Below, in pieces: positions 36,958 to 44,118 of a stretch of 56,285 nucleotides of DNA (position 1 is the first letter of the stretch; the number at the start of each line of letters is the position of its first letter). Position numbers and translations under genes: made by a program. This stretch comes from Promethearchaeota archaeon (GTDB taxonomy: Archaea > Asgardarchaeota > Lokiarchaeia > Sigyniarchaeales > SOKP01), in the NCBI GenBank assembly GCA_048939015.1, contig JBHLPW010000031.1, positions 1 to 56,285 of the forward strand, written 5' to 3'. The notes beneath the pieces were generated by a model. It saw only the letters and a program-made list of their open reading frames with translations. It did not search any database and had not been told where the DNA came from.

Positions 36958-38151
36958 ATGGTTTATATTGATAAAGAAAAGTTAATGACGTTATTTAAAT
37001 GGTATATGCAAGAGGTAGGAGATAATTTAGTTTCTGTTCTTGTAGTGGATCGCGATGGTTTAATTGTCGAAATCTATACTAGAGATTCTGATAAATCAGA
37101 TGAAAAAAAGTTTATTGGAGCATTTAGTTCTTTAGTTGAGTTAGTATTAAAAAAATTAACTCAAGATTTTGATCTTGGAACTTTCGGCGCCGGAACTTTC
37201 GATACTGATAAATATCGTTTTATATTTTGTGAAGCGGGATCTGATCATGTATTAGTGTCAATTCTCAATCATACAGCGTTAGTTGATGATGTATTTCCTT
37301 ATACTTATTTAACAGCGGATAAGGTTGCGAGAATTATTGATGGCGAATTACCAGTTAGTCCTGTAATTCCAAAAATCAAACGAGATACTGAACTTGAAAA
37401 AATAAAACGTAAAATGGAATATTACCAAAGTAAATCTCATTCACCCAAATATGTTTATAAACTTTCTTTAATTGGAGATGGTGGAGTAGGAAAGACAAGT
37501 ATGGCTCAAAGGTATGTTCATGGGATATTTCGAGCAGATTATAAAGGAACAATTGGAACATATATCTCAAAGAAAGAATGTGAATTTAAAGAATTAGGTA
37601 CCTCAGTAAGATTTATGATATGGGATCTTGCTGGCCAAAGCCAATTTGAGCGACTATGGCCAGATTACTTAACAGATTCTCGTGCAGGAATTATTGTTTT
37701 CGACATAACAAATAGAGAAACATTTGATAATGTTAAGAAATGGTCTGATATCATCACTAGAGTTGCATTACCTCATATAGTTTTGATCCTTGTCGGAAAT
37801 AAAGTTGATCTAGACACCTCAAGAGTAGTTTCTACCGAAGAAGGTATGGAATTGGCTAAGGAATTAGGTGTTTATTATATGGAAACGTCAGCAAAAACAA
37901 ATGAAAATATTGATGATGTTTTTGAGTGGATTGCGCTTCAAATCATCAATACAAACATTGAAGAAGTAAAAGACACTATATTCGATAAACAAATAGAAGA
38001 AGGTTCAAAATTCATTATTTCTAGCCCCCAAATGAAAATTTTAAACCAATATTTCACTAAGCAATTGGATTATTGCATTGGTAAAAGTGATTCAAAAGAA
38101 ATTCTTAGATATTTAGACATTTTAAATGTGATTGAGAAAAATAAATTATAA
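36958..38151 (+). CDS. Roadblock/longin-like domain fused to a Rab-like small GTPase
   Basis: N-terminal VLVVDRDGLIV roadblock-like pattern, then GDGGVGKT, WDLAGQ, GNKVD, ETSAK. Confidence 0.88.
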   Translation: MVYIDKEKLMTLFKWYMQEVGDNLVSVLVVDRDGLIVEIYTRDSDKSDEKKFIGAFSSLVELVLKKLTQDFDLGTFGAGTFDTDKYRFIFCEAGSDHVLVSILNHTALVDDVFPYTYLTADKVARIIDGELPVSPVIPKIKRDTELEKIKRKMEYYQSKSHSPKYVYKLSLIGDGGVGKTSMAQRYVHGIFRADYKGTIGTYISKKECEFKELGTSVRFMIWDLAGQSQFERLWPDYLTDSRAGIIVFDITNRETFDNVKKWSDIITRVALPHIVLILVGNKVDLDTSRVVSTEEGMELAKELGVYYMETSAKTNENIDDVFEWIALQIINTNIEEVKDTIFDKQIEEGSKFIISSPQMKILNQYFTKQLDYCIGKSDSKEILRYLDILNVIEKNKL

Positions 38152-38168: not shown

Positions 38169-41111
38169 TTATATGTTTATATATAGAGCTGGTTTGAATG
38201 GTTTTGCTCTTTCAGCTCTATTTTTCGGATCGAAATCAGAATTTAAAATGATCTTGGAATTTACACGCTTTTCTATATAAAATGTATAATCTTTAATTAA
38301 TTCGGTTTCATTGATTTGAGGAATCTTCTTTTCCCAAATTCTATCCTTTATCTGACTTTTTATGAAAGGAACAAGTTCTTTTTGGACTAGCAGCTTTTTC
38401 TCATTTTTTAATATTAACATTATTTCATTAAAATTATCTTTTTTCAGTAAAATCAATTCTACTATCCGATATTTCCATTCAGGAGCAGTGTATAAAAAGA
38501 TATCATTGGAGTTCTCTGATGTAATTATTTTCTTTATATTAAAAATATCCTCAATAATGTTTGAGATGTATTCAAATTCATTCTCAAGGTTTTTATTAAT
38601 GTATTGATTACTAAAATCTCCCCAAACCGCTTTCGATATAAATCCTTCATTTCCAGAGGCTTCCCATAATTCTTCACATAAATGAGGCATTGTCAAGGAA
38701 AGTATCTTTAACCAGTCCTTATAAATCAATTTGAACACGATATGAAAATCATTCATATCATCAGTATCCCTATAAAATTCCTGTATCAGATTGAAAATTT
38801 CGTAAAAAGATATCTGAAGATATTTACGTATATTATATTCTTCTAAAGCTGTTTTGGCCTCAATAAATTTTCCAATAACCTTAGAGAGCATTACTTTTGA
38901 ATATTTAGAGCCAATATCATTAAAAATTGGAGCAAAATTTTTGGATTGACCTAATTTTTCAGAAATAAAGCTATAAAATTTTGTTATATGGTTTTTCACT
39001 GTTTCTATTTCCTTTTCTCGAAAATCCATATACACTCCAAAGTCAGCACCGTGAGAGATATAAAACCGAAATAAATCCGCAGAATAACTTTTTTGAATCT
39101 CAGCCAATGGAATTAGATTTCCTTTTGATTTACCCATTTTCTGACCTTCTACATTAACAGGTTCAATCAGACTTATAACTTTTGGCCAAAATTTTTCAGG
39201 GAATATAGCAACATGATGAAATATGTAAAAACTTAAATGATTAGAAATATGCATAATTGCTGTATGGCGATGGTCAACCGGATACCAATATACAAATTCT
39301 TTTTGGAGTTCTAGAAGTATTTTTTCGCTTATTTTCGTCTGTTTTGAAATTTTCTGAATATCTCCTCTCTCTAAAAATACAAAATCAAAAAATTCAGGAA
39401 TTAATTGTTCCTGTTTAATTTGATATTCTCTAATTTTATATGAAATTGTATAAAATGCCATATATATGGTTGAATCACTAAGAGACTCTATTATCCAATC
39501 TTTATTGAAAGGCAATTTCGTTCCTAAACCTCTTTTTCTCGCACAAGGTCTTTTTTCAAGCCAATTAAAAATGTTTTCAAAGTTTAATCGATATTTATTT
39601 GGTATAATTTTCATCTTATTAAGACAATCGAATGCTTTTTCTTTCCAATCTCCCGAATTAAAATTCAGAAACCATTGATCTTTAAGAATTGATACTATAA
39701 TATCAGCTCCACACTTGCATTTAAGTTTTTTAGTTATAGGAATATAAACTTTATCTGCTTTATTTTCTTCTATTAGATCTTCTGTGACCTGTCGTGCAGC
39801 ATCACTAACCTTCATACATTGGTATTTACCACATTTATCATTAAGTATACCATTATAAAACTCATTTTTGTAATTCTCACTGGTTGCTAGATCTAATTTT
39901 TCTTTATCTAATTGAGATTCAACATTATTTCGTTCACAATAAATTTTTGCGGGAAAATCGCTAAATCCTTTTATTTCAATAATTTGAATCGGATAAATTA
40001 ATTCAATTGACCTCTTATCTAAATTAAATTTTTCAATTATTTGACTATTTTTCTGCAAATCAATTAATGCGATGTAATCATAAGGGGCATGGGCAGGAAC
40101 GGAATAAACCACACCTGTAGCTGTTGCTGTGTCTACAAAATCTCCTGGTAAAACTGGAATTTCTTTAATTCCATAGACATCCCTAGCATTTTTTCCAATA
40201 AGATTACTTCCTTTAAACTTTTCTATAATATTAATTTCTTTGTTTTGATTTTCTAATAAATTAGTAGCTTCTCTAGAGATAAACCATATTTCACCATTTA
40301 CATTAGCTTTAATATAATCTCCTTTTGGTTTTATCCATATATTAGTTACTCCATAAACTGTTTCTGGTCTTAAAGTTGATGCAACAAGGAATCCATCTTC
40401 AAATGGAAATTTTATACAAATAAATTCATTAATATTAAGATCTAGCTCATCTCCACTAGCAATGTCATCCTCTCCTACAGCATTTTTATCTCTAGGGCAA
40501 TACAAGATAGGATATTCACCTTTTTCAATATAACCTTTTTCTTTTAAATGAAAATATTGCCATTCAATGAATTTATTATATATTTTATCTCCTGTCGTGA
40601 ATTCCCTACGCCAATCTAGACTCATTCCTATAGATTTGAAATCCAATTTAATCGTATTTGAGAAATAGTTCACAATTTTCCATGGATCCACGAAACTATT
40701 CACAATTTCTTCCACTTTTTTCTGATCATTTGTATGTAGTGATACGTATTCTTTCATCCGTTCTATTTGAATTTGATCTCCTCTTTCAATAGATGATGAA
40801 ATCGCTAAAACAGGGGTACCTGTGATATGAAAAGCCATTGGATATAAAACATTATATCCTCTAGCTCGATAATACCTAGCAAATATATCTCCATTGACAA
40901 AACTCCTCCCATGACCAATGTGAGTAGGACCTGATGCGTAGGGATAAGGAGAAGTAATAAATGTTTTGTCTATTTTACTTTCTGGATTTGCTTCAAATAT
41001 TTTTGCTTCTTCCCATCTATCTTGCCATTTCTTCTCAATCTTTTGTGGTTCGTACATTTTTTCATCAATTATTCCAATCAATTTTTTTTTATAAATCTTT
41101 AACTCTTTCAA
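38169..41111 (-). CDS. leuS: Leucine--tRNA ligase, archaeal type (start may be ATG 41057)
   Basis: PYPY..G..HIGH, STLRPET, editing motif ATGVVYSVPAHAPYD, KMGKSKGN. Confidence 0.95.
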   Translation of the reverse strand: MKELKIYKKKLIGIIDEKMYEPQKIEKKWQDRWEEAKIFEANPESKIDKTFITSPYPYASGPTHIGHGRSFVNGDIFARYYRARGYNVLYPMAFHITGTPVLAISSSIERGDQIQIERMKEYVSLHTNDQKKVEEIVNSFVDPWKIVNYFSNTIKLDFKSIGMSLDWRREFTTGDKIYNKFIEWQYFHLKEKGYIEKGEYPILYCPRDKNAVGEDDIASGDELDLNINEFICIKFPFEDGFLVASTLRPETVYGVTNIWIKPKGDYIKANVNGEIWFISREATNLLENQNKEINIIEKFKGSNLIGKNARDVYGIKEIPVLPGDFVDTATATGVVYSVPAHAPYDYIALIDLQKNSQIIEKFNLDKRSIELIYPIQIIEIKGFSDFPAKIYCERNNVESQLDKEKLDLATSENYKNEFYNGILNDKCGKYQCMKVSDAARQVTEDLIEENKADKVYIPITKKLKCKCGADIIVSILKDQWFLNFNSGDWKEKAFDCLNKMKIIPNKYRLNFENIFNWLEKRPCARKRGLGTKLPFNKDWIIESLSDSTIYMAFYTISYKIREYQIKQEQLIPEFFDFVFLERGDIQKISKQTKISEKILLELQKEFVYWYPVDHRHTAIMHISNHLSFYIFHHVAIFPEKFWPKVISLIEPVNVEGQKMGKSKGNLIPLAEIQKSYSADLFRFYISHGADFGVYMDFREKEIETVKNHITKFYSFISEKLGQSKNFAPIFNDIGSKYSKVMLSKVIGKFIEAKTALEEYNIRKYLQISFYEIFNLIQEFYRDTDDMNDFHIVFKLIYKDWLKILSLTMPHLCEELWEASGNEGFISKAVWGDFSNQYINKNLENEFEYISNIIEDIFNIKKIITSENSNDIFLYTAPEWKYRIVELILLKKDNFNEIMLILKNEKKLLVQKELVPFIKSQIKDRIWEKKIPQINETELIKDYTFYIEKRVNSKIILNSDFDPKNRAERAKPFKPALYINI

Positions 41112-41209
41112 TTATAATTACTCGACAAGCGAACAAATCCGAGGATATTATAAAAGAGAAAGAGCTTAAGGATTTGTATCGCTCAAGATAATAATAAAAC
41201 TGCGAGTAA
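41101..41209 (-). promoter_or_regulatory. Putative attenuator RNA structure in the leuS 5' leader
   Basis: GAGCGATACAAATCC/GGATTTGTTCGCTT stem, TTACTCG/CGAGTAA outer stem, U-rich loop tract, and alternative AGCTCTTTC/GAAAGAGTT pairing. Confidence 0.6.
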
Positions 41210-41233
41210 ATCAACTACTGACATTTCAATCAT
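41183..41233 (-). CDS. Leu-rich leader peptide MIEMSVVDLLAVLLLS upstream of leuS
   Basis: SD GGTGA 5 nt before ATG. Five Leu codons, including TTA TTA TTA just before Ser-stop. Confidence 0.7.
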   Translation of the reverse strand: MIEMSVVDLLAVLLLS

Positions 41234-41481
41234 TAAATTCACCTTAAACGCAGTCTTATTTGAAAACATCCTTATAAAGAGTATATATAAGCTTATATTA
41301 AAATATTTCTAGGCGCGTGTAACATTTTTTATGAACAGTATTGATTATTGAATTTTAATCTATTACTATAACTCGTTTTTTATATATAGTGCAAATTGTT
41401 AAATAGATCCTCTTTTTTCATTCAGTAAAGATTCATACATCTAATTAAATCTAATTTATAAGAGATTAAAGATGATTTCAA

Positions 41482-44118
41482 ATGACATATATCAATAATT
41501 CAACTAATTCTGAACAACAATATCTTACGATTCTTAATTCCTTAAATGATCCTATGCATGTGGTTGATAGAGACTTAAGAATTATGTATCAAAATCCTGC
41601 TATGATAAATTGGCTCACAAAATTAAAGATAGATTCTGAGATTATAGGTAAAACCATTTTCGAGGTATTTCCATTCTTAGATTATGATAAAGTTTATAAT
41701 GAATATGATAAAATCTTCCAAAATGGAGGCGTTTTAGTCACTACTGAGGCAACAAAACCATTTGATCGTTTTCTTTATACTGAAACCTCAAAGATCCCGA
41801 TAAAAACGGAAGGCAAGGTTAATCAAGTCATTACTATTTTGAGAGATATTACTGATCAGAAGGAGGCTGAAGAAAAATTAGTAGCATCTGAAAAAAAGTT
41901 TCGAAATTTATTCGAAAATTCTCCAAATATGATAATACTACTAAACAAGGAGGGAATTATTCTAGATGTAAATCAATTGTTTTTAAAAAGATTTGGTTAT
42001 GAAAAAGAAGAATTGATAGGAAAGAATTTTCAAAATGTTAGCAGGTTTGATTCAGAAAATATATTACTTTTAATAAAAAAGCACAAAGAAGTAATAGAAA
42101 AGGGAAAAGTAGAACCCTTCATACTGGAAACAAAAACTAAGGAAGGAGTATCATTATGGTTTAATTTCCAAGCATCTACTATTGAAATTGGTGAACAAAA
42201 ATATATTCAAGTAATTTTTCAAGATATTACAGAAAAAGTGTCAGCTGATCGTGAATTAAAAGAATCAGAAGAAAAATTTAGGAGTATTACCGAACAATCA
42301 ATTATGAGTATATTAGTAATACAGGATGGACTAATTAAGTATATTAATGAACGTGTTTCACAAATTAATGGTTATTCAGAAGAAGAAATACTAAACTGGG
42401 GACCATATGAGTTCATGAAAGTTGTTCATCCAGAAGATAAAGATTTTATTTTGGAACAAGCTAAGAAAAAACAATCAGGAGATCCAGATGTTACTCCTCA
42501 ACATCAATATCGCTTAATAAGGAAGGATAATGAGATTCGGTGGATTGAAAACTTCTCTAAAACAATAAATTTTGATGGAAAGCCTGCAGATTTAGTAACT
42601 ACTATTGATATTACAGACAAGATAAAAGCAGAACAAAAATTAAAAGAATCTGAAGAAAAATATCGTTATTTAATTGAAAATGCATTAGAAGGAGTTTGGG
42701 TTATAGATTCAAATGCAGATACAATACTAGTGAATCCTACTATGGCAAAGATTTTAGGTTATACTGTTGATGAAATGATTGGAAAGTCCTTATTTTCATT
42801 CATTGATGAAGATCAAATTGAAATAACAAAAAAACAAATTAAAAGAAGAAAGTTAGGTATCGCCGATGAGAGGGATGCTGAATATTTACATAAGAATGGA
42901 AATAAAGTCTATTTAAGATTAAGAGCAGCTCCCATATTCGATAAACAGCGTAATTATGAGGGTGCTTATGCCTTTCTGGCAGATATTACTCAACAAAAAT
43001 TAGCTGAGCAAAAATTAAAAGAATCTGAAGAAAATTTTAGAACGATTGCAGAACAAGCGTTTATAGGAACCCTGATAATCCAAGATGATAAAGTTGAATA
43101 TGTGAATGAAGCATTACTTCAAATTTTCGATTTTTCTCATGAAGATGTTCATAATTGGACAAAAGATGATCTTTTGAAACTTATTTTTCCCGAAGATTTG
43201 GATAATCTAAGAGAATATCGTAATAAATTAAAAGCTGGTGAACCCGACTTTAAAAAGTTCTATTCTTTTAGAGCGTTTACTAAATATGGCAAATTAAAGT
43301 GGATTGATCAATTCTCTAAATCCATCATTTATCGAGGGAAGCCAGCAGAATTAATCACTATCATGGATATCACTGAAAAGAAGAAAGCTGAGCAAGAATT
43401 AATAAAGCTCAACAATTTAAAATCTGAACTACTTAGAAGAACCTCTCATGAATTAAAAACACCGCTCGTATCAATTAAGGGTTTTTCTGATCTCTTATTA
43501 ACAGTACATAAAGAAAAGTTAGATGACTATGTGCTAGCTACTGTTCGTGAAATCAAACTTGGGTGCGAAAGACTTGAGAATCTGATACAAGATATTTTGA
43601 AAACTTCAGAATTAGAAACTGAATCAGTTGAAATAAAAAAAAGAAAGGAGGATTTATCTTTTCTTATAAAATTGTGTATAAAGGAGCTACAAGGTTTAAT
43701 TAGGTTAAGAAATCATGAAATTAGCCTTGAAATTCATGACAAGTTAATCACTTGGTTTGAACCAGATCAAATCCACTTAGTTATAAGTAATTTACTTAGT
43801 AACGCAATTAAATACACCCCTCCTGACGGAAAAATTATAATTCAATCTGCTTTAACACAAGATTATATTTTAATTTCAATAAAAGATAATGGAATTGGAA
43901 TTACAACTGAAGAAAAGAAGCGTTTATTTTCTCAATTTGGAAAAATTGAACGATACGGGCAAGGACTTGATCTTATAACTGAAGGATCCGGTTTAGGATT
44001 ATATATTACTAAAAAAATCATTGAATTACATGGGGGAATGATAAGGGTAAAATCTGGTGGAAGAAATAAAGGATCTACTTTTTATTTCACTCTTCCTTTG
44101 ATTGAAAAAAAAGATTAA
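41482..44118 (+). CDS. Multi-PAS sensor histidine kinase
   Basis: About 5 PAS units, TSHELKTPL, HATPase motifs. Confidence 0.93.
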   Translation: MTYINNSTNSEQQYLTILNSLNDPMHVVDRDLRIMYQNPAMINWLTKLKIDSEIIGKTIFEVFPFLDYDKVYNEYDKIFQNGGVLVTTEATKPFDRFLYTETSKIPIKTEGKVNQVITILRDITDQKEAEEKLVASEKKFRNLFENSPNMIILLNKEGIILDVNQLFLKRFGYEKEELIGKNFQNVSRFDSENILLLIKKHKEVIEKGKVEPFILETKTKEGVSLWFNFQASTIEIGEQKYIQVIFQDITEKVSADRELKESEEKFRSITEQSIMSILVIQDGLIKYINERVSQINGYSEEEILNWGPYEFMKVVHPEDKDFILEQAKKKQSGDPDVTPQHQYRLIRKDNEIRWIENFSKTINFDGKPADLVTTIDITDKIKAEQKLKESEEKYRYLIENALEGVWVIDSNADTILVNPTMAKILGYTVDEMIGKSLFSFIDEDQIEITKKQIKRRKLGIADERDAEYLHKNGNKVYLRLRAAPIFDKQRNYEGAYAFLADITQQKLAEQKLKESEENFRTIAEQAFIGTLIIQDDKVEYVNEALLQIFDFSHEDVHNWTKDDLLKLIFPEDLDNLREYRNKLKAGEPDFKKFYSFRAFTKYGKLKWIDQFSKSIIYRGKPAELITIMDITEKKKAEQELIKLNNLKSELLRRTSHELKTPLVSIKGFSDLLLTVHKEKLDDYVLATVREIKLGCERLENLIQDILKTSELETESVEIKKRKEDLSFLIKLCIKELQGLIRLRNHEISLEIHDKLITWFEPDQIHLVISNLLSNAIKYTPPDGKIIIQSALTQDYILISIKDNGIGITTEEKKRLFSQFGKIERYGQGLDLITEGSGLGLYITKKIIELHGGMIRVKSGGRNKGSTFYFTLPLIEKKD

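Follow-up and report, generated by a model that had tools for sequence, protein, structure and literature searches.

How might an Asgard archaeon adjust the output of leuS, its gene for leucine-tRNA ligase (LeuRS)? The question is raised by a locus in the 56,285-nt contig JBHLPW010000031.1 of a Promethearchaeota archaeon, referred to here in its full length as the window. An earlier note on this DNA proposed that leuS is preceded by a leucine leader-peptide attenuator. In bacteria, leader-peptide attenuation is textbook knowledge; it needs coupled transcription and translation, and literature searches found no documented archaeal case. Comparison of the leader across related genomes partly confirmed what the note had observed and partly supported its interpretation. 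Judged from sequence comparison, a translation-coupled leader RNA switch is well supported, and leucine-specific sensing is plausible. The explanation favoured here, which is considered somewhat probable, is that the position of a ribosome on a Leu-rich open reading frame (ORF) in a ~190-nt leuS leader chooses between two competing helices, H2 and H3, and so sets leuS transcript output.

The leader ORF was defined in an alignment of 43 orthologous leaders (Table 1). All 43 sequences keep its frame open between the ATG and the base of the stem, compared with 0/43 and 1/43 for the two other frames. The distinct indels within the ORF measure 3, 3 and 6 nt; in the 90 columns that follow it, eight indels measure 1 nt and one measures 2 nt. 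The alignment varies most at third codon positions, with a column entropy of 0.75 compared with 0.54 and 0.60 at the other two. The consensus peptide is MISNKTALKMNLxEKxSLVDLLAVLLLS, and the stop codon that ends it (TGA or TAA) directly adjoins H2, with a spacing of 0 nt, in 43/43 sequences. This short ORF with a conserved reading frame upstream of leuS is apparently translated. The ORF reported in the earlier note, MIEMSVVDLLAVLLLS (ATG 41233 to TGA 41183), is present, but it makes up only the last 16 codons of the 28-codon ORF, and its ATG is not conserved. The GGTGA at 41243-41239, taken there for a Shine–Dalgarno (SD) sequence, falls inside the conserved ORF, where most orthologues have AAGATGAAT instead.

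The promoter also had to be relocated. A TATA site had been placed at ~41284-41290; the TATA box that is conserved among orthologues lies further upstream, within a nearly invariant candidate promoter that resembles a transcription factor B recognition element (BRE) and TATA box. In most leaders, and in all of the leader classes described below, a T/A-rich box begins 31-34 nt before the leader ATG. An A-rich patch at -39 to -37 precedes this box in all classes, and T-A-A-T-A stands directly before the ATG. In archaeal leaderless promoters, the TATA box is centred ~26-27 nt upstream of the transcription start site (TSS) and the start codon lies within ~5 nt of the TSS. The position of the T/A-rich box therefore points to a TSS ~4 nt upstream of the ATG, at ~41273, which would leave a 5′ untranslated region of ~4 nt and an effectively leaderless mRNA. 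As orthologues share neither a TATA box nor any other second promoter between the leader and leuS, the leader ORF probably belongs to the same transcript as leuS.

Downstream of the promoter, the leader is organised around four helices (H1, H1b, H2 and H3), which were tested in the same 43 sequences against slid controls and 500 shuffles. Over the four named helices, 90.2% of cells are paired, compared with 42-52% in the slid controls. Changes on both sides occur at 16 pairs (82 cells), and the observed values were reached by 0/500 shuffles. Furthermore, the single-sequence fold of the 203-nt leader is more stable than its shuffles (z = -2.78). Frequent G-U pairs identify the RNA strand as the leuS strand. 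H1 joins an early part of the ORF to the codons of its Leu run; 91-93% of its cells are paired, three of its pairs show both-side changes, and it encloses the small covarying hairpin H1b. A ribosome positioned on the Leu codons would be expected to open H1. H2 corresponds to the long stem that had been proposed between 41184-41170 and 41140-41127. It was borne out by covariation as a helix of 12 bp (41182-41170 with 41140-41129) with one bulged base, in which 95% of cells are paired and four pairs carry compensatory changes. RNAalifold also recovers H2, and the sequences of its arms are conserved more than pairing demands.

H3 was likewise anticipated: the pyrimidine tract at 41164-41152 and its complement GAAAGAGTT(AA) at 41109-41099 are present, and their pairing covaries. 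The helix joins the first part of the H2 loop, U tract included, to the downstream GAAAGAGAUCAUAG. It has 14 consensus pairs, seven of them with both-side changes, and 86% of its cells are paired. The third pairing that had been proposed, between the Leu codons TTACTCG (41209-41203) and CGAGTAA (41124-41118), is possible in the window but is neither conserved nor supported by covariation; across the 43 orthologues its 5′ side is invariant, its 3′ side drifts without compensation, and the pairing is broken in several. In the spacer between H3 and the leuS ATG, a second conserved upstream ORF (uORF) or SD sequence (AGGUGG) was considered and rejected, as it is not consistently open; the AGG of AGGUGG appears instead to lengthen H3, which then reaches the last CC of H2. 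This spacer (41058-41098, minus strand) is ~41 nt long in the window compared with ~70-100 nt in orthologues, and in the window it is without their conserved AGGUGG…CACUC hairpin.

The arms of H2 could alternatively be read at the level of DNA, with the inverted repeat GCGAACAAATCC/GGATTTGTTCGC serving as an operator for a dimeric transcription factor in a divergent promoter region. The arms are indeed highly conserved and the repeat is intergenic between divergent genes, but its spacer measures 29 bp, and arm changes are of the G-U type only on the leuS strand, where the other strand would have A-C mismatches. Covariation over 50-70 nt is also seen in H1, H1b and H3, whose partner strands are not palindromic, and the loci differ in their upstream neighbour but share a fixed downstream orientation. 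An operator is thus a very improbable explanation of the repeat.

Since H3 crosses H2, with which it shares the junction, and takes up the final CC of the H2 5′ arm, the two helices must form either a pseudoknot or alternative states. The fold energies calculated for the window are -44.9 kcal/mol in the H3 state and -42.4 kcal/mol in the H2 state, and the H3 state has the lower energy in 34/43 orthologues, with a median gap of 3.8 kcal/mol. The H2 3′ arm is transcribed ~75 nt ahead of the H3 3′ strand. That H2 covaries although H3 usually has the lower energy, and that its 3′ arm emerges earlier, fits a kinetic, co-transcriptional structure. When a ribosome footprint with its A site on the leader stop codon was masked, H2 disappeared from the predicted fold; when the footprint was masked on earlier Leu codons, the H2 5′ arm stayed free. 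Both results come from the folding model only.

The U tract lies inside the H2 loop rather than directly 3′ of a stem, and its consensus reads U5 + U4. In Methanococcus maripaludis, the termination factor aCPSF1 (FttA) binds U tracts as its terminator signal; the minimal signal reported for its binding and for high termination efficacy is two U4 tracts, which the U5 + U4 of the leader matches, and Lokiarchaeota orthologues of aCPSF1 were among those tested (PMC8716108). Reported locations of the two-U4 signal are the 3′ ends of genes and sites within operons (PMC8716108). By analogy, the tract in the leader may act as a terminator. No literature report was found of a U tract being masked by an RNA helix under ribosome control.

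From these elements the following mechanism is proposed. The promoter would fire ~4 nt before the ATG, and a ribosome would load directly on the 28-codon leader ORF. H2, transcribed first, would be the kinetic state, with H3 the more stable one in most orthologues. A ribosome at the stop codon would cover the H2 5′ arm, so that H3 forms and the U tract is hidden. With the ribosome delayed on the Leu codons, or absent, H2 would form and leave the U tract single-stranded in its 30-nt loop, where exposure would probably lead to termination or cleavage ahead of leuS. The choice between H2 and H3 would thereby set how much transcription, or how much intact mRNA, enters leuS, and the Leu codons would tie this choice to charged tRNA-Leu. 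The sequence comparison shows the ORF frame, the helices, the competing pairings of H2 and H3 and their conservation across the family; we infer the rest, namely that the ORF is translated, that termination takes place, that leucine is the specific signal and in which direction the switch works. If an exposed tract favours termination, the logic would be that plentiful leucine switches the gene ON, contrary to how classical biosynthetic attenuators behave. It would also suit the acyl-CoA and mutase-cluster genes introduced below.

The scaffold is widespread within one Asgard family. A first search found the ~200-nt element upstream of leuS in 18/18 full-length same-genus orthologues and in one split copy. 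With blastn, 43/54 genomes of the genus gave one copy each, which in nearly every case immediately preceded leuS. A covariance model built from the core matched in 51/54 genomes of the genus and in 101/131 sampled genomes of the family (11/13 genera), and it matched in 0/19 genomes from three sister families of the order. A pattern scan of GTDB genomes was dominated, among the matches listed, by chance matches in A/T-rich bacteria. The element shares the orientation of the gene that follows and stands immediately before it at each of more than 110 loci, which represent at least five gene classes, and the length of the leader ORF stays narrowly within 20-32 codons across the classes. The genes served include an FrhB/TrmB fusion, whose neighbours on either side encode the B12 subunit of methylmalonyl-CoA mutase and MeaB.

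The own genome of the window holds only two copies of the scaffold. In the second copy, the leader stop codon lies inside the H2 5′ arm, and the copy precedes an SD-led acidic protein of ~60 aa that carries an DLILDYYKDWDS motif and belongs to no Pfam family.

Could the leader instead be a gene in its own right? The ORF might encode an independent, trans-acting hydrophobic or amphipathic micropeptide, with H2 and the U tract as its own 3′ end, leuS as a separate gene and the linkage between them as inherited synteny. The conserved frame and its purifying selection would suit such a gene, as would the U tract shortly after the stop codon, the signal- or anchor-like character of several leader classes (12-16 hydrophobic residues behind an N-terminus that is polar and basic) and a TATA-like box just upstream of leuS in the window. 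Against this, the H2 3′ arm and the H3 3′ strand, which lie beyond the U tract, still covary, and RNA past the tract must therefore be made and selected. The invariant abutment of the stop codon on H2, the fixed strand and position relative to the next gene across the classes, and the lack of a conserved second promoter in orthologues are also at odds with a free-standing gene. Moreover, an Asp interrupts the short hydrophobic stretch of the leuS peptide, some versions of which are rich in Leu, Arg, Gln and Lys and are not membrane-like. The micropeptide explanation is considered improbable.

A separate question is whether a leader that acts in cis responds to leucine. The composition of the leaders was expressed as the share of the last 12 codons, for 46 tabulated leuS leaders out of 53 leuS-linked ones in all. 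Leu accounts for 56% (42-75%) of these codons in leuS leaders, Ile for 1% and Val for 12%. In the leaders of the FrhB/TrmB class the shares are Leu 24%, Ile 36% and Val 17%, and in those of the small 'EIEDE' proteins they are Leu 39%, Ile 2% and Val 39%; the proteome background is Leu 9.7% and Ile 10.4%. In the window, 8/28 leader codons are Leu, and the last eight codons are mostly leucine (DLLAVLLLS). The alignment check that had been suggested for leuS leaders found the conserved uORF and covarying stems, and it found Leu-richness in 53/53 leuS-linked copies. These copies span at least three genera and three LeuRS lineages: an archaeal type, a ~40%-identical type and, in another genus, a type with a bacterial core, whose leader ends in KVLLLLLL. 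Diverged leuS leaders in which leucines alternate with polar residues, ending in FLLRKVLLRELLQLLSL or FLQKKVLLQTLLQLLL, are still Leu-rich. At codons 21, 22 and 25-27, variants are mostly synonymous (CTA, CTT, TTG and CTG).

Other classes differ in kind. The FrhB/TrmB-class leader is Ile-rich and ends in IIIIILAVLIR, that of the acyl-CoA dehydrogenase is Val-rich (ending in SSVVVVDVVVVLL), and that of the amidohydrolase class is rich in Leu and Val (ending in LLVLLLLSLVVVLLLL). The pairing of leuS with Leu, of acyl-CoA dehydrogenase with Val and of the methylmalonyl-CoA mutase cluster with Ile suggests, from sequence, a branched-chain amino-acid logic. A general form of the proposal is that the family uses ribosome-mediated, amino-acid-specific attenuation, in which leaderless Leu/Ile/Val leaders gate the U-tract termination of leuS and of branched-chain acyl-CoA genes. 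This generalisation is offered tentatively, and it is regarded as rather doubtful.

The strongest competitor to leucine sensing keeps the leader RNA and its uORF and changes the signal: the leader would be a general cis-regulator that responds to translation or coupling status, to a ligand or protein on the conserved loop or stems, or to nascent-peptide arrest, with the Leu run as a by-product of the A/U-rich H1 3′ strand being read in frame, or of a preference for hydrophobic tails. The occurrence of the scaffold before at least five unrelated gene classes agrees with it. So do the extra conservation of the H2 arms and the ORF length of 20-32 codons, which resembles that of tunnel-acting arrest peptides. 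Across classes, the tails rich in Leu, Ile and Val follow the sequence of the H1 3′ strand (GUAGUAGUAUUAUUA, GCAGUUUUAUUAUUA), and the DYYKDW class reads the same RNA motif in another frame, giving ...IRSIIKRE before the stop. Yet composition is class-specific (high Leu with almost no Ile for leuS, high Ile for FrhB/TrmB and 39% Val for the small proteins and the acyl-CoA dehydrogenase class). H1 could be kept with the codons of any of these classes, and structure alone therefore does not force leucine. The bias of key Leu codon substitutions towards synonymous ones and the amino-acid logic of the gene pairings also count against a signal other than leucine. On balance this alternative is thought unlikely, and it carries considerably more weight than the micropeptide gene or the operator.

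Several observations nevertheless weigh against ribosome-controlled leucine sensing at leuS. The scaffold is not leuS-specific, in that the same layout of promoter, ATG, H1, H2, U tract and H3 stands before unrelated genes. One non-leuS class, with the leader MFVRPLLNKLLVLLLLSLVVVLLLL, is equally Leu-dense (Leu and Val), and the DYYKDW class, whose leader ends in VKPVFIRSIIKRE and uses a different frame of the shared GUAGUAUUAUUA motif, lacks any hydrophobic run or repeated codon; the cognate-codon rule is therefore not general. A look for cognate-codon leaders at other aminoacyl-tRNA synthetase genes had also been suggested; no such gene stood behind the scaffold among the ~75 non-leuS hits inspected. 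The Leu codons of the leader are not rare, TTA being the commonest Leu codon (72%). The Leu run may reflect an RNA constraint: it overlaps the H1 3′ strand (GCAGUUUUAUUAUUA), and pairing therefore also constrains those bases. Moreover, Leu-richness of leuS leaders could have arisen once. A quick tree split the leuS-linked leaders, and independent origins were considered on that account and dropped, since a single clade is not rejected (approximately unbiased test, p = 0.685, with the Leu-run columns removed).

The transcriptional side has its own difficulties. A scan of 40900-41600 for an intrinsic terminator (hairpin plus U run) returned 0 sites. The best match in the own genome to the aCPSF1 model (TIGR03675) scores 283 bits, which is below the cut-off, and leaves the KH region unmatched. 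In the window only, a TATA-like TTTATAAAAA ends ~27 nt before the leuS ATG and could be a lineage-specific second promoter. Where the TSS lies, whether the leader is transcribed together with leuS and whether RNAs end within the U tract are likewise predicted from sequence.

Table 1. Positions of the leader elements, of related scaffold copies and of neighbouring genes. Positions are those of the window unless a contig or locus is named; peptide sequences run up to the stop codon.
Feature	Position	Strand	Remarks
Candidate BRE/TATA-like promoter, AGAAATATTTTAATATAA	41293-41310	minus	nearly invariant in 43 orthologous leaders
TATA box, TTTTAATATAA	41303-41293	minus	conserved among orthologues
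Leader ORF, MFSNKTAFKVNLMIEMSVVDLLAVLLLS	41183-41269	minus	28 codons + TGA; ATG 41269 column invariant
H1 5′ strand, AAUAAGACUGCG	41249-41260	minus	codons 4-7; pairs with 41204-41193
H1 3′ strand, CGCAGUUUUAUU	41193-41204	minus	within L-A-V-L-L codons; pairs with 41249-41260
H2 5′ arm, GCGAUACAAAUCC	41170-41182	minus	begins at the base after the stop codon
Pyrimidine/U-rich tract, CUCUUUCUCUUUU	41152-41164	minus	in H2 loop; consensus CUCUUUUUCUUUUA; kept in all leader classes; putative terminator
H3 5′ strand, UUAAGCUCUUUC	41158-41169	minus	start of H2 loop, overlaps U tract; pairs with 41109-41099
H2 3′ arm, GGAUUUGUUCGC	41129-41140	minus	pairs with 41182-41170
H3 3′ strand, GAAAGAGUUAA	41099-41109	minus	pairs with 41158-41169
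leuS, archaeal-type leucine-tRNA ligase	38169-41057	minus	962 aa; start ATG 41057
Histidine kinase with multiple PAS domains	41482-44118	plus	878 aa; divergent from leader promoter
Small-GTPase-domain protein	36958-38151	plus	397 aa; convergent with leuS 3′ end
76-codon ORF	40961-41191	plus	antisense to leader and leuS start, opposite the covarying RNA; probably spurious
Second own-genome scaffold copy	contig C12:1485-1591 (locus L071)	minus	31-codon ORF ending in VKPTFIGSIIKRE
Scaffold before FrhB-like/TrmB-helix-turn-helix fusion gene	loci L067-L069, L072-L076, L116-L120		
Scaffold before acyl-CoA dehydrogenase	locus L125		dehydrogenase gene followed by an ORF that is ETF-beta-like by its N-terminal sequence
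Scaffold before amidohydrolase cluster			
Scaffold before several families of acidic proteins			45-70 aa; no Pfam match
Best aCPSF1-model match	contig C107:60339-61643 (locus L273)	minus	444-aa ORF; model positions 173-629 only

The assignment of leuS itself is straightforward. Protein family models identify the product as an archaeal-type LeuRS (NF008957, 1087 bits; TIGR00395, 948 bits). The mechanically called ORF (38169-41111) begins at TTG 41111; this start was rejected in favour of ATG 41057, because every orthologue aligns from residue 1 of MYEPQKIEKKW. The same genome encodes a second LeuRS of 929 aa (contig C61:22594-25380; locus L272:595-3381, minus strand), with a bacterial-type catalytic core (TIGR00396, 949 bits) and 320 C-terminal residues that match archaeal models. 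It shares ~29% identity with the archaeal-type LeuRS of the window, and no leader was found upstream of its gene. In another genus of the family (loci L114 and L132), the bacterial-core type of LeuRS is the one with the Leu-rich leader. The host genome has a G+C content of 29.8%. The organism is uncultured, and a search for sequencing records that contain its DNA listed sediment-metagenome DNA contigs and no RNA run.

How does the leader compare with known systems? As in the bacterial attenuators of Escherichia coli leu, pheST (pheM) and ilv, a short leader ORF precedes the gene and has a run of cognate codons near its end, the ORF ends at the first of two competing helices, and a U-rich tract is involved; as in pheST, the targets include an aminoacyl-tRNA synthetase. 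Unlike those attenuators, the leader is found in an Asgard archaeal host, its ORF is leaderless and without an SD sequence, and its Leu codons are the commonest rather than rare ones. Its U tract is placed in the H2 loop and sequestered by H3, not in a hairpin followed by a U run, and the scaffold serves unrelated genes. The attenuator proposed at the outset thus retains its frame-conserved ORF with a Leu run and a stop codon at competing, covarying helices, but loses the hairpin-plus-U-run terminator. Because that terminator is lacking and the cognate response is a prediction, the leader is not classed here as a bacterial-type attenuator.

The T-box riboswitch of bacterial leuS genes is also a cis-acting 5′ leader that controls a synthetase gene through alternative RNA structures. 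It binds uncharged tRNA directly, however, and has no leader ORF. A cmscan search of 40500-42000 gave no T-box match in the leuS leader and, with E up to 10, no credible match to any Rfam family, the only hits being at chance level and well below gathering scores. In ermC and cat attenuation and in MifM and SecM, a ribosome on a short uORF likewise remodels downstream mRNA structure, and the leader ORF described here (~20-32 codons) is within the range of exit-tunnel-acting peptides of the MifM/SecM type. Those systems unmask an SD sequence and answer drugs, or secretion and membrane insertion; in the leuS leaders no SD sequence is sequestered, and the U tract is conserved.

To our knowledge, the scaffold of the leuS leader is an undescribed, family-wide Asgard 5′ leader, and conditional termination in archaeal 5′ leaders has been barely explored. 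It constitutes an RNA family, present in ~100 Asgard genomes and backed by covariation, in which a conserved leaderless uORF keeps a set place at the base of a two-state structure built around a U tract. If the favoured mechanism is true, the lineage closest to eukaryotes would gate transcript completion by ribosome position. Should the general, amino-acid-specific form of the proposal hold as well, it would be, as far as the literature searches show, the first such attenuation reported in archaea, with archaeal termination machinery taking the place of a bacterial intrinsic terminator. The leader would offer a handle on transcription-translation coupling and on the control of aCPSF1/FttA-type termination in Asgard archaea. 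If leucine is not the signal, it would still represent a new class of archaeal cis-regulatory leader.

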